Source: Rhodospirillaceae bacterium (GTDB taxonomy: Bacteria > Pseudomonadota > Alphaproteobacteria > GCA-2721365). Taken from it: a stretch of 64,000 nucleotides of DNA. Position 1 is the stretch's first letter, and the number at the start of each line of letters is the position of its first letter. Positions 9,430 to 13,143 of the stretch are shown piece after piece. Both the position numbers and the translations under genes were made by a program. Below the pieces are notes generated by a model. That model saw only the letters and a program-made list of their open reading frames with translations. It was not told where the DNA came from and made no database searches. The stretch lies in assembly GCA_002721365.1 (NCBI GenBank), contig PBKC01000059.1, forward strand, positions 12,091-76,090, written 5' to 3'.

Positions 9430-9468
9430 GGAAGGCTTCAGGTCTCTTTCGATCCAGGCTGATTAGGA

Positions 9469-9527
9469 CGTAGCCCGGATGGAGCGCAAGCGCAATCGAT
9501 CGGATCAGGTCGCCGACCGGGATTCCC
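9469..9527. repeat. REP-like palindromic element (CGTAG type), interrupted
   Basis: CGTAGCCCGGATGGAGCGCAAGCGCAATC, a 20-bp insert, then CGGG. Resembles rhizobial CGTAGCCCGGAT...GCGCAATCCGGG repeats as I recall them. Confidence 0.55.
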
Positions 9528-9532
9528 AAACC

Positions 9533-9761
9533 TTAGACAGAGGAACTGCCCTCATATGGCAATCCGTCATCTTCCAGCTGGGCTTGGAGCAGGCCGGCCA
9601 AATATTCTTCCATCTCGCTGAAATCGAGATGGCCATCGTCCCAAGCCCGATCCGCTGCTGCTAACGCAGCCTCATATCCTTCGCGGTCATCCCTGATTCG
9701 CTCTGGAAGAATCTTTCTTCCCGGCAAAAGCACTTCAGACCGAACGCACAGTAGAAAATAA
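9533..9761 (-). pseudogene. Fic-domain gene, 3' fragment (split by IS)
   Basis: Reads YF-LLCVRSEVLLPGRKILPERIRDDREGYEAALAAAD...; joins in frame with the 12301-12718 fragment when the IS and one TSD are removed. Confidence 0.9.
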
Positions 9762-9801
9762 GGCAATTATATACTTTACTTAGCGAATCAGGTTCACCAC
9801 A

Positions 9802-10023
9802 GTGTGCGACGACAGGCCGGCGCTTAATTCAGACGAGATCGAGGTGACCCCCGGGATGATCGAGGCGGGGGTGGCGGAGCTTCGCCAATTCGTTCGCGGC
9901 GAGGATTCTATTCCGGCTTATGCGGAGTGGATTTATCGGGCAATGGAAGCTCGACGCCGTAATCCATCAGGGCGTGGGCGAGCGCTTGCCGTTCGTCAGT
10001 CGCGGCCTCCAGGAATTTGTTGA
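9802..10023 (+). CDS. IS passenger: small hypothetical protein
   Basis: DEIEVTPGMIEAGVAEL...WIYRAM is protein-like and lies just inside the TIR. It overlaps the 3' end of the convergent HEPN gene; start uncertain. Confidence 0.5.
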   Translation: MCDDRPALNSDEIEVTPGMIEAGVAELRQFVRGEDSIPAYAEWIYRAMEARRRNPSGRGRALAVRQSRPPGIC

Positions 10024-10516
10024 TCAGGATGATCGCGGTTGCTGTGTACAGGTGGTGAGCCAAGCCATCCGGGAATCCAACACGCTTTGCGTCGCTTGAG
10101 CCTTCTTTCGGTTCAAGGAAGCTGCACAGTCGCTCGACCTCGACGGTCTTAAAGGTGATTGGGCGCATCGTGTGGGCGAAGGCGTTTCTCACTTCGCGTA
10201 TGGTGTGGAGATTCCGCTTTTCGCGTTTGTCGCAGAGTCTCAATGCGTAGGCGAGATTAATCCTGGCGGAGAATGTGCCGAGCGGCCTGTCGGGATCGAA
10301 CAAATCCCCATAGTCATCGGAGTTTAGAGGCCGAAATTTGGCTGCCAGCGCCATGCGAATGGTGTCGTCGAGCATGGAGGCGATGACCAAAGCCGCGCCT
10401 CTGTCGCTTTGGTTGACGACGGCGTTGAAAACTGTGTCCATGTCGCCTGATCCAGGCGGCTGCCTGGAAAGGGACTTCAGAGCTTTGCGAGCCTTCTCCA
10501 ATGCCGAAGCAGACAT
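9908..10516 (-). CDS. IS passenger: MtlR/MltR-like (HEPN-fold) protein
   Basis: SDRGAALVIASMLD, LF..DRPLGTFSARINLAYAL and IREVRNAFAH (RxxxxH). SD-like GAGGGG precedes ATG 10516; alternative start 10441. Confidence 0.8.
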   Translation of the reverse strand: MSASALEKARKALKSLSRQPPGSGDMDTVFNAVVNQSDRGAALVIASMLDDTIRMALAAKFRPLNSDDYGDLFDPDRPLGTFSARINLAYALRLCDKREKRNLHTIREVRNAFAHTMRPITFKTVEVERLCSFLEPKEGSSDAKRVGFPDGLAHHLYTATAIILINKFLEAATDERQALAHALMDYGVELPLPDKSTPHKPE

Positions 10517-10695
10517 CTAAGCCCCCTCTCTCTGATGCCGACGACCAGCTATCCCCCGAAGAGACGGTAGCGCGTCGCGAGACCATCCTAAAGCGGTTGC
10601 TGAATACGCCGCCGAAGCCGCTGAAGCCGAAGAAGGAGCCGACCGCTGGCGAGAAGCCGAAGCGGGGGCGGCCGAAGAAGGGCAATGGCGGCTAG
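10501..10695 (+). CDS. IS passenger: small basic protein (64 aa)
   Basis: SPEETVARRETILKRLLNTPPKP, then a K/R/P-rich tail with KRGRPKK (AT-hook-like). No clear SD. Confidence 0.55.
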   Translation: MPKQTSKPPLSDADDQLSPEETVARRETILKRLLNTPPKPLKPKKEPTAGEKPKRGRPKKGNGG

Positions 10696-10699
10696 AGCG

Positions 10700-11083
10700 T
10701 CAGCGCCGCCCTTTTCTGGCGTCGGCCCAGCTGTTTCCGGCAGCGCGTTCGTTATGTGCATCGACCGAGTCGTACATTTCGAAATGCTGTTCGGAAGGAA
10801 TCTGCTTGCCGCAGCTCGGACACTTGAAGACCTCATCGCCATATCTCGGGTGGTAGCCGTGGCTGAGCATCGGGTTCGGCGGGAACGTGCATTGGCATAG
10901 CTTGTAGCCGAGCGATTGTGCGAGCTGCGCCTCGCTGGCGCGCAGGGCCTTCTCCGCTTGCTCCAAGCGTTGTTGAGCGGCGTCAGCGTCAGGTCCCTTC
11001 GGGAGAAGTGCGCTCAGTGACCTGAGAATATCTAAAACGTCCTTAGATGCCCGGATGTATTCGGAGATTTGGCTCATATCCAT
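10700..11083 (-). CDS. IS passenger: Zn-ribbon-containing hypothetical protein (~127 aa)
   Basis: AAGGAG SD before ATG 11083; helical N-terminus, then GYKLCQCTFPP...FKCPSCG (CxC...CxxC). Confidence 0.75.
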   Translation of the reverse strand: MDMSQISEYIRASKDVLDILRSLSALLPKGPDADAAQQRLEQAEKALRASEAQLAQSLGYKLCQCTFPPNPMLSHGYHPRYGDEVFKCPSCGKQIPSEQHFEMYDSVDAHNERAAGNSWADARKGRR

Positions 11084-11311: not shown

Positions 11312-12241
11312 CTAGGCGTCTGCGGCTTGACGAGGTTGCCTATAGGTCAACCGCTTGCCTTCGATGCCTTTGAGGGCCTTGGCGGCGCGTTCGGCATCCT
11401 CGACGCCGAGGGCGGACCGCTCGTTGTGGCGGAAGTCGAACTCGCACAGATACCGCTTCAAATGAGCTTCCGAGACGTGGTGATAGGTCCCGTAAATCCC
11501 GCGCTTCAGGGTCGAGAAATAGCTTTCGACGGTGTTGGTGTGCCAGAAGCCGCCACGGACATATTCGTCGATGCTGTGGTTCACATGGCCGTGGCCGGCG
11601 AATTCCTTGCCGACCGCCGTGTAGGTCGGTGCCTCATCGGTCATCAGGTAGCTCTTGCGGCTGGCCTGGGTGACGAGGGTTTCGCGGACGTTCTTCGCGG
11701 TGACGTTGGCGACGTGCGTTGACCGGACGCGGCCGTCGCGCTCGACGAGGGACATGACGGCCTCTTTCTTCGGCGGCTTCTTGAAGGCGCGGTTCTTCGC
11801 CTTGCCGCCGATGTAGGTTTCATCGGCCTCGACGACCTTGTTCTCGCCACCGAGCGGCGTATCGCTGTTGTCGCGCATCGCCTCGCGGATGCGGTGGGCC
11901 AGGAACCACGCCGTCTTGTAGGTGACGCCGAGCATGCGGTGGAGCTGGTGGGCGGACATGCCCTTCTTGCTCGACGCCATCAAATGCATCGCCAGAAGCC
12001 ACTTGTTCAACGGAATGTGGCTCCGCTCCATCACGGTGCCGGTGCGGACGGTGAACTTGCCCCGGCAATCGTTGCACAGGAACATGCCGGCCTGGGTCTT
12101 CCCGCCCATGCGGCGGATATTGCCGGAACCGCAGTGAGGGCAGGTGACGCCATCGGGCCAGCGGGACGCCTCGATATGGGCGCGGGCGGCTTCGGCGTTC
12201 TGAAAGATCGGGTCGAAAAGGTTGGTGGTCGTCATGGTCAT
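11312..12241 (-). CDS. IS1595-family transposase (Zn ribbon + ISXO2-like DDE)
   Basis: CPHCG...CNDC, VEADETYIGG, LMTDE, VNHS..EYVRG..HTNTVESYF, HLKRYLCEFDFRHN. Confidence 0.96.
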   Translation of the reverse strand: MTMTTTNLFDPIFQNAEAARAHIEASRWPDGVTCPHCGSGNIRRMGGKTQAGMFLCNDCRGKFTVRTGTVMERSHIPLNKWLLAMHLMASSKKGMSAHQLHRMLGVTYKTAWFLAHRIREAMRDNSDTPLGGENKVVEADETYIGGKAKNRAFKKPPKKEAVMSLVERDGRVRSTHVANVTAKNVRETLVTQASRKSYLMTDEAPTYTAVGKEFAGHGHVNHSIDEYVRGGFWHTNTVESYFSTLKRGIYGTYHHVSEAHLKRYLCEFDFRHNERSALGVEDAERAAKALKGIEGKRLTYRQPRQAADA

Positions 12242-12300
12242 GCTCCTGTCTTGATAGGAACATGATATCTCTAGGCTGCTAAGTCAAGTATATAATCGCC

Positions 12301-12718
12301 GAAAATAACATGTCGCGCGCGCAGTTCTTCCATTACCTTCTATAAAAGGGTGAATCCAGTTCAGACGCCAAAGCCCGTAGGCTGCGAGCTCTGTCGGAGT
12401 CCAAATATACCAATTTTCCTGGACCGTCGAAATAAACCGATCCATCCACTCATCAACCTCATTAAAGTGAGGCGGTTTATGGTCTCCAACATAGATTGGC
12501 TCTCTGCGAAAGCGCCCTCCAAACTGGGATATATTAGAAACTGCCACATGATTGAGAGCCCACAGAAGGTATTTATCAAAAGATACCGGCCCCTTCTTTA
12601 AGCCAATTTCTATGCAGTTTGTCATCAAGTCATACTGACGGTTCAGGTTTTGCTCCTGAATCCTATCGAATAACTCCTGGTCTTCTTGTTCCAGAACAAA
12701 TATTGCAAGAAAGATGCT
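12301..12718 (-). pseudogene. Fic-domain gene, 5' fragment containing the catalytic motif
   Basis: HPFIEGNGRTAR matches canonical HxFx(D/E)GNGRxxR. Truncated by the IS directly after the motif; visibly AT-rich. The frame is open back to the TGA at 12719-12721, with no ATG/GTG/TTG before 12628. Confidence 0.9.
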
Positions 12719-12934
12719 TCAGTTAGGGCCCTTTGTGATCCGAATCCGTCCGGCCGATTCTCTCGCAGACTCCTTGGTGATTCGGGACCCCTTCGGAGCA
12801 TTGCCATAGACGAAACTCGCGCGCTGCTCCATCAGTTGCTGATCAGTCAGGACCACCGTCTTTGCCCGCTCTAAAAGAGACTGCAACCCAGGGCGCTCGG
12901 GTGCACGCCGAAAAGCTGCCTTCCGTTCCGCCAT
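12719..12934 (-). CDS. Small protein upstream of fic, putative antitoxin (71 aa)
   Basis: Strong SD (GGAGGAAGAAGGA); EQRASFVYGN...RITKE; position and size fit a class I Fic antitoxin. Confidence 0.7.
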   Translation of the reverse strand: MAERKAAFRRAPERPGLQSLLERAKTVVLTDQQLMEQRASFVYGNAPKGSRITKESARESAGRIRITKGPN

Positions 12935-12946
12935 TCCTTCTTCCTC

Positions 12947-13012
12947 CTACTCCTTCAACGTCCTGAGAGACTGTGTATATGGCATCCCTCGTTGCGGTCG
13001 TTTAGACCACAT
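12947..13012 (-). CDS. 21-aa micro-ORF MWSKRPQRGMPYTQSLRTLKE
   Basis: GAGGAG SD 8 nt upstream of ATG 13012; the TAG abuts the SD of the next gene. Below the ORF-track length cut-off. Confidence 0.5.
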   Translation of the reverse strand: MWSKRPQRGMPYTQSLRTLKE

Positions 13013-13041
13013 GTATGCACCTCCTCGTGGGGAAACACCAT

Positions 13042-13055
13042 AATCCCGCGGGATT
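13042..13055. promoter_or_regulatory. Perfect 14-bp palindrome, candidate operator of the Fic islet
   Basis: AATCCCGCGGGATT lies just upstream of a TATGGT -10-like hexamer on the minus strand. Confidence 0.35.
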
Positions 13056-13143
13056 TTGTGGGAACAAAAATTGGTTCAACCGCGCCTCAGGAACCTTAAC
13101 GCAACGCTACGTTTACGTCTCAACCGGCCCAAATTCTTGCGAT

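Follow-up and report, generated by a model that had tools for sequence, protein, structure and literature searches.

What separates trpF from trpB in this genome, and in what order did the separating DNA arrive? The stretch analyzed here, hereafter the window, comprises 64,000 nucleotides (nt) from a Rhodospirillaceae bacterium (contig PBKC01000059.1 of assembly GCA_002721365.1, positions 12,091 to 76,090). Within it, pyrF/trpF and trpB/trpA each share a GTGA overlap, which bears out the coupled pairs described in an earlier, sequence-only reading, and the trpF stop lies 3,714 bp from the trpB start, where that reading had put about 3.7 kb. The trpF–trpB distance in about 60 other lineages is usually 20–160 bp. 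The same reading had pictured a two-layered insert: an outer, AT-rich cassette in the trp orientation, composed of a micro-open reading frame (micro-ORF), an antitoxin-like ORF and a fic gene and edged by a repetitive extragenic palindrome (REP)-like element, and an inner, cargo-bearing IS1595 insertion sequence (IS) lodged in fic. We consider it very probable that two successive lineage-specific insertions, together with a small third lesion, explain the gap.

The source is a marine alphaproteobacterium known from a draft metagenome bin (G000; 4.04 Mb in 105 contigs, 86% complete), and the GTDB r232 species library contains no other member of its order. The 40 comparison "relatives" of G000 are kin at class level only. 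Coordinates of all features are collected in Table 1.

Three States of One Locus

Relatives of TrpF were sought by a homologous-protein search of a large protein collection, followed by inspection of the encoding contigs; a metagenome scan with TrpF returned nothing above 64% identity. The nearest public TrpF outside the window's own population is 81% identical (L218, Logan SRR23287141), and the second is 69% identical (L220). L218 is collinear with the window over 6.8 kb at 80% DNA identity, through an EAL-domain gene, HpcH, an Ogt-like gene, ada/alkA, an ORF of 98 amino acids (aa), pyrF and trpF. By BLASTN the collinearity ends at 13158 and resumes at 9503, after 14 nt of L218, to continue into trpB. 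The comparison of trpF–trpB junctions proposed in the sequence-only reading thereby yields the empty site: the L218 spacer, 80 bp long, consists of a REP-like element and a trpB leader of the window's type, the 143-bp spacer of L220 holds two inverted REP copies, and the cassette is absent from both. Because these spacers are cassette-free, the cassette is lineage-specific and not ancestral.

The intermediate state is preserved in L217 (Logan SRR21836767, 2,427 bp), an IS-free allele of the same locus in which pyrF, trpF, the 71-aa ORF, an intact 207-aa fic, the REP-like element and trpB follow one another in this order. Once the IS and one copy of the flanking duplication are taken out of the window, the two sequences are 99.6% identical over the 2,427 bp of L217, with no gap. 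There are nine differences, two of them inside the cassette, at 9749 (synonymous, in the fic 3' piece) and at 12701; the protein encoded by the fic 3' piece is identical to the C-terminus of the L217 Fic. Removing the IS and one duplication copy by script likewise rejoins a single Fic frame of 207 aa, in which ...HPFIEGNGRTARATCYF runs directly into LLCVRSEVLLPGRK..., and places the split nine codons past HPFIEGNGRTAR. L217 provides a natural empty site for the IS. The two-layer nesting of the sequence-only reading is thus demonstrated by natural intermediates, IS-free in L217 and cassette-free in L218 and L220.

The third state, with the same trpF–71-aa ORF–IS–trpB arrangement as in the window, was found by exact-protein look-ups in five further assemblies: ENA ERZ908596 (marine run ERR599032), ENA ERZ27286497, JGI 3300020429, Logan SRR7617343 and NCBI GCA_001028485.1. 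These are 99.9% identical to the window, with no gaps and with single-nucleotide polymorphisms (SNPs) of their own in each; an SNP at 11511 sets the window apart from all five. At position 12701 the window has A where L217 has G, so that the codon equivalent to the fic start (12701–12703) is ATA in the window and in all five other IS-bearing assemblies and ATG in L217. In the IS-bearing haplotype, then, the start codon of fic is gone as well. With the IS in its frame and ATA at its start, fic is doubly inactivated, and the partner gene is intact.

Where exactly did the outer layer enter? The insert replaces 14 nt of the L218 spacer. At its trpF side, the window TrpF ends in ...GALAPIRR where L218 ends in ...GALAQA, and the last four codons plus the stop (PIRR and stop) come from inserted DNA; the insertion struck the last codons of trpF. 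At the other side, the cassette's 3' boundary lies 12–30 nt past the fic stop. Positions 9504–9521 match the L218 trpF 3' end at 12 of 18 nt, a weak match on which we do not rely; the segment may be a decayed target duplication.

The REP-like element, taken in the sequence-only reading as the left edge of the cassette, has to be reassigned. It is present in both L218 and L220 and is accordingly native to the spacer rather than a cassette edge. G000 contains about nine copies of this family (consensus CCCGGATTGCGCTCCGCTCCATCCGGGCTAC), some in inverted pairs like those of bacterial interspersed mosaic elements (BIMEs). As in REP/BIME families, the window element is an imperfect, GC-rich palindrome of about 31 nt with several intergenic copies, some in inverted pairs, and it is kept at the same spacer in relatives with 69–81% TrpF identity. 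It differs in that just about nine copies occur in the 86%-complete bin and in that the spacer copy has a degenerate 5' arm. REP-like copies also lie on contigs C43, C54, C66, C71 and C81 of G000.

The Inner Layer: A Transporter Insertion Sequence

The inverted repeats of the IS are 23 nt long (9762–9784 and 12278–12300, 21 of 23 positions complementary); they have only these two matches in the window, and 100 shuffles gave zero chance matches. On both flanks stands the 8-bp direct repeat TTATTTTC, which occurs only once in the IS-free allele L217. A target duplication of 8 bp is the value for the IS1595 family. The transposase carries the domains DDE_Tnp_IS1595 (PF12762, 4e-33) and Zn_ribbon_IS1595 (PF12760, 3e-10) and matches NCBIfam NF033547 (9e-58). 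Together, the repeats, the duplication, the domains and the restored frame confirm a cargo-bearing IS1595 element inside fic.

Insertion sequences with passenger genes ("transporter ISs") were first described for the IS1595 family, according to the passage of PMC3129680 that cites Siguier, Gagnevin and Chandler 2009. The window element resembles them: its single transposase is of the DDE type and has a zinc ribbon at the N-terminus, its terminal inverted repeats are short, its duplication measures 8 bp, and past the transposase, before the far inverted repeat, lie genes that play no part in transposition. L217 shows that this cargo travels with the element: it lacks all 2,539 bp, of which 1.55 kb are cargo, and the missing block is bounded by the duplication. 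The window element differs in that its cargo has no DNA match in genomes carrying related transposases and in that only one copy is known. The window IS belongs to a known kind, the transporter IS, and is new as an individual element.

Of 401 alphaproteobacterial genomes, 46 have transposase DNA related at 65–74% identity, and related transposases of other genomes are flanked by ends like those of the window IS (GGCAATTATATACTTGA...). The cargo half (1.55 kb) has no DNA match among the approximately 400 alphaproteobacterial genomes searched, and an exact look-up found no protein identical to the window transposase elsewhere. In L222 (G059:C59), GGCAATTATATACTTGA inverted repeats stand about 1.86 kb apart around an IS1595-type element, longer than a bare transposase; judging from this length, the element may carry cargo of its own.

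The IS is a mosaic in composition, with a host-like GC content at third codon positions (GC3) of 0.86 in the transposase and 0.64–0.69 in the cargo. No internal remnant inverted repeat that would explain cargo capture was found in it. Of the two passengers, ORF160 has no family match in Pfam, NCBIfam or PADLOC. ORF202 scores 23.7 against the DUF4145 cut-off of 23.1, near threshold, and contains an R-x4-H motif (RNAFAH), a candidate for the R-x4-6-H motif that HEPN-superfamily proteins have in a DUF4145/MtlR-like helical domain; its homologues are very few, and several distant ones carry PF05068 (MtlR). PADLOC returned nothing for the IS cargo or the 71-aa partner. A lysine-rich ORF of 64 aa on the plus strand (10501–10695), called in other assemblies, is a possible third passenger.

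The Outer Layer: A Widespread Fic/Partner Family

With the IS removed, the outer layer measures 1,167 bp at 51% GC, compared with 65% for the genome, and its GC3 is 0.46–0.63, compared with 0.83–0.86 for the trp and pyr genes. The AT-rich character, the fic gene and the trp orientation claimed in the sequence-only reading are all upheld. The micro-ORF fares less well as a cassette component: none of 80 related cassettes is preceded by an equivalent ORF, and the leader itself shows no similarity to their upstream regions. A palindrome in the leader, AATCCCGCGGGATT (13042–13055), is unique in the genome, and a search ahead of the partner gene in the 80 loci found neither a conserved operator palindrome nor a conserved leader peptide.

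These 80 loci (L132–L211), to which the family analysis is confined, were drawn from at least 264 matches to the N-terminal piece of Fic in species-representative genomes, so that the search for the same cassette at other loci, likewise proposed in the sequence-only reading, recovers the paired module in at least 264 genomes and at varied sites. Among the 80, the Fic proteins are 75–90% identical and spread across orders, and 44 of the 44 loci with an order label are alphaproteobacterial (Hyphomicrobiales, Rhodospirillales, Rhodobacterales, Geminicoccales, Minwuiales and Parvularculales). In every case fic is directly preceded by a homologue of the partner. The catalytic motif takes the form HPF(I/V/T)EGNGRT(A/V)R in 76, and where it is locatable the start codon of fic is ATG (39 genes), GTG (6) or TTG (3). 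Cassette DNA similarity is at most 76% and ends at the ORF boundaries. The immediate neighbors fall into 108 Pfam families, mostly housekeeping, for example ABC-F ATPases, CarA, histidine biosynthesis, CoaBC, IMPDH and EPSP synthase. The commonest family occurs in only five loci, and the 25 neighbor families listed include no integrase or transposase. In a plasmid search, a Methylosinus megaplasmid held the one close Fic copy, and no plasmid vehicle was identified. In two class-level relatives, G039 (L033, between carA and carB) and G006 (L034), the module is convergent to the carA 3' end. G000 itself has a second, unrelated Fic-domain gene (C37:13672–13947, 34% identity over the core) within a 417-aa open frame.

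Does the low GC content date the arrival of the cassette? Of the 40 best-matching copies, nearly all have a cassette GC content (44–61%) lower than that of the flanks (58–74%), typically by 10–20 points with extremes of 4 and 28, and the tree of Fic plus partner mostly tracks order-level taxonomy, with eight label changes compared with a shuffled mean of 21.7. Because AT-richness is family-wide and the tree mostly follows taxonomy, low GC is a trait of the Fic family and does not date its arrival. The composition check named in the sequence-only reading thus gives a real difference that is not evidence of recent import. These comparisons suggest that the AT-richness of the cassette may reflect selection, not recent transfer.

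A Class I Toxin–Antitoxin Pair?

Among proteins of known structure, the FICD catalytic core comes closest to the window Fic by sequence (E 1.5e-12); similarity to class I Fic toxins is weak (VbhT, E about 1e-3; EcFicT, 24% over 119 aa). As in the class I Fic toxin–antitoxin (FicTA) systems VbhTA and EcFicTA/YhfG–Fic (PMC5033356, PMC5675462), the Fic protein is about 200 aa long, without an internal inhibitory helix and with HPFxEGNGRxxR; it carries the full adenosine monophosphate (AMP)-transferase motif in the FicTA form HxFx(D/E)GNGRxxR. A small ORF stands immediately upstream, in the window as in all 80 loci. The partner family is highly conserved (MAERKSALKRAPERP...EQRASFVYGNAPKGSRITKESA), with a motif S-F-x-Y/F-G-N in which S, F and G are invariant in an alignment of 28 sequences. 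The pair may be called class-I-like in architecture; its membership is not established.

Several observations weigh against a toxin–antitoxin reading. Class I antitoxins possess an inhibitory helix, [S/T]xxxE[G/N], with an invariant Glu (PMC5033356); this Glu is absent from the partner, which has Gly in its place if the motifs are equivalent. The partner has no match in Pfam, NCBIfam, PADLOC or the PDB, and against E. coli K-12 YhfG/EcFicA (DUF2559) hhalign gives a probability of 0.1%, so that no homology to the known FicA antitoxins (VbhA, EcFicA) is detectable. The label "antitoxin-like" used in the sequence-only reading therefore holds for the upstream position and for nothing beyond it. 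A truncated fic beside an intact partner does recur in at least three other genomes (L200, which is the same as L034, L211 and L168), where either a premature stop or a break at the HPF motif or close to it shortens the gene, and the reverse was seen in none; such a pattern agrees with the logic of a toxin, but the statistics are not compelling, as an asymmetry of 3–4 versus 0 falls within the 3:1 expectation from gene length. It is from gene order alone that we infer toxin–antitoxin behavior.

The libraries searched contain no characterized member of the window Fic clade. The partner's Gly, the strong protein conservation, the low GC, the varied sites and the lack of a recurrent integrase or transposase neighbor lead us to a tentative suggestion, which we hold as a minority possibility, that the Fic/71-aa pair is an uncharacterized, widely sited alphaproteobacterial Fic system with a different Fic control or an unrecognized mode of relocation.

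How the Cassette Arrived

In keeping with the sequence-only reading, there is no integrase or recombinase gene in or beside the insert, which therefore does not qualify as an integrase-type island, and no clean direct repeats flanking the outer insert were found. Could the module then move by itself, through an unrecognized insertion mechanism? Its many different housekeeping sites, with no integrase or transposase among the recurrent neighbor families, its constant occurrence as a tight two-gene unit and the closeness of the 3' boundary to the fic stop in the window would agree with such a mechanism. Conservation, however, stops at the ORF boundaries, with no conserved terminal repeats or palindromes found, neither protein is recombinase-like, and the tree is mostly congruent with taxonomy. 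We regard self-mobility as improbable.

That tree, as that of an old and mostly vertical family, together with a GC content that is silent on recency, would also sit well with a cassette ancestral at this site and precisely deleted in the lineages of L218 and L220. It is countered by the two separate relatives themselves, whose short spacers contain only REP sequence and whose TrpF proteins have ordinary C-termini, and by the window TrpF tail, which is encoded by inserted DNA. Related cassettes moreover occur at many different loci, and two precise deletions are less parsimonious than a single insertion, making an ancestral cassette very unlikely. For the entry of a lineage-specific cassette we favor illegitimate recombination over a dedicated mechanism, giving it somewhat the larger share of the remaining uncertainty; against it stands the fact that no repeats, microhomology or remnant ends that clearly explain the insertion were found.

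A draft bin in 105 contigs at 86% completeness invites the suspicion of an assembly or binning chimera, but six assemblies from four sources show the same junctions with independent SNPs and a seventh shows the exact IS-free allele, which effectively refutes it. Because independent assemblies reproduce its junctions, the insert is not an assembly artefact. The existence of relatives without the cassette and the agreement of the five further assemblies also dispose of the two doubts raised in the sequence-only reading, namely, a cassette carried by the whole clade and an unsupported assembly. Equally close to excluded is a single partner–Fic protein made by UGA read-through, which was entertained since the two ORFs share a frame with one TGA between them and the window fic has no canonical start, its first ATG or TTG lying 30 codons into conserved Fic sequence: it is refuted by the start codons, ATG at the family's usual position in the IS-free allele and ATG, GTG or TTG in the family, and by a frame count of 27 of 80 related loci, the chance third, with TGA, TAA and TAG alike.

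The Interrupted Operon

The trpF–trpB spacer exceeds 480 bp in about 15 of the roughly 60 other lineages, with unrelated genes inside, and it is evidently permissive for accessory genes. Genes found there elsewhere encode RidA/YjgF, GNAT acetyltransferases, AraC/cupin regulators, a Lipoprotein_15 protein and a weak PIN-domain ORF; lineages with such insertions are L059, L074, L087, L093, L096, L097, L112, L113 and L124. In the window, all inserted genes share the orientation of the trp operon. A promoter and terminator scan found no excess of terminator-like sites over chance and no promoter above chance, and Rfam gave no match in 9300–13400. Because the inserted genes are co-oriented and no terminator is convincing, it is plausible that trpBA would be transcribed by read-through from upstream.

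Table 1. Features of the trpF–trpB region, in window coordinates.
Feature	Position	Strand	Basis or remark
trpA	7394-8221	-	ORF list and domain search
trpB	8218-9429	-	Pfam PALP
trpB native leader, 37 nt	9430-9466	-	Aligns to L218
Native REP-like element of trpF–trpB spacer	9467-9503	-	Homologous to L218 and L220 spacers
Whole lineage-specific inserted block, 3,654 bp	9504-13157	-	BLASTN of L218 against window
fic 3' piece, 76 codons, stop 9533-9535	9533-9761	-	Frame restored by joining flanks
Target-site duplication copy 2, TTATTTTC	9754-9761	-	Read from sequence
IS1595-family transporter IS, 2,539 bp	9762-12300	-	Inverted repeats; single copy in G000
Passenger ORF202 (177 aa in other calls), DUF4145/MtlR-like	9908-10516	-	Pfam DUF4145, 5e-5
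Passenger ORF160 (127 aa in other assemblies' calls)	10700-11182	-	C-terminal CxC...CxxC zinc-ribbon-like motif
IS1595 transposase, 307-309 aa, GC3 0.86	11312-12241	-	Pfam and NCBIfam domains
Target-site duplication copy 1, TTATTTTC	12301-12308	-	Read from sequence
fic 5' piece, catalytic motif HPFIEGNGRTAR	12301-12703	-	Pfam Fic (PF02661), ~3e-15 to 5e-15
71-aa partner ORF, intact	12719-12934	-	Homologue upstream of fic in 80/80 loci
Cassette leader, 209 nt, non-coding, 51% GC	12935-13143	-	Absent from L218
Micro-ORF, 21 codons	12947-13012		Inside cassette leader
trpF, 219 aa	13144-13803	-	Pfam PRAI, 4e-41
pyrF	13800-14606	-	ORF list and domain search

Discussion

In conjunction, the three states show the following history of the locus. 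A segment of about 1.1 kb with the 71-aa partner and the 207-aa Fic landed in the last codons of trpF, just 5' of the native REP in a spacer of formerly about 80 bp and in the orientation of the operon, giving TrpF a new four-residue tail and leaving trpB its own REP and leader. It probably entered by illegitimate or short-homology recombination, without a dedicated integrase or transposase. An IS1595 transporter IS, bringing its transposase and passenger ORFs, one of them DUF4145/MtlR-like and presumptively of the HEPN type, then entered an AT-rich octamer of fic nine codons past the catalytic motif, duplicating 8 bp and severing the C-terminal ~70 residues of Fic. The change of the fic start from ATG to ATA is the third lesion, found in the IS-bearing haplotype. 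It is plausible that the pair behaves as a Fic toxin of class I type with its partner and that loss of the toxin is tolerated, and that trpBA is still transcribed through upstream read-through.

What does this locus add? Each layer is of a known kind, and as an example of nested mobile DNA the locus is ordinary, though well documented. It offers something rare, a natural series that is complete at a single site: the empty site, the cassette only, and the cassette with the IS. Because all three states are found in public assemblies, the order in which a nested insertion within a biosynthetic operon was built up is shown directly rather than inferred. To the earlier picture we add this three-state series, the native REP, the second, start-codon lesion and the description of a widespread, uncharacterized Fic/partner family.

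Two cautions for genome scans follow from the locus. Low GC is characteristic of this Fic family and no clock of acquisition, and a missing start codon together with an in-frame stop can be simple decay, not recoding. A Fic/partner family in which Gly replaces the inhibitory Glu may be worth studying at the bench.

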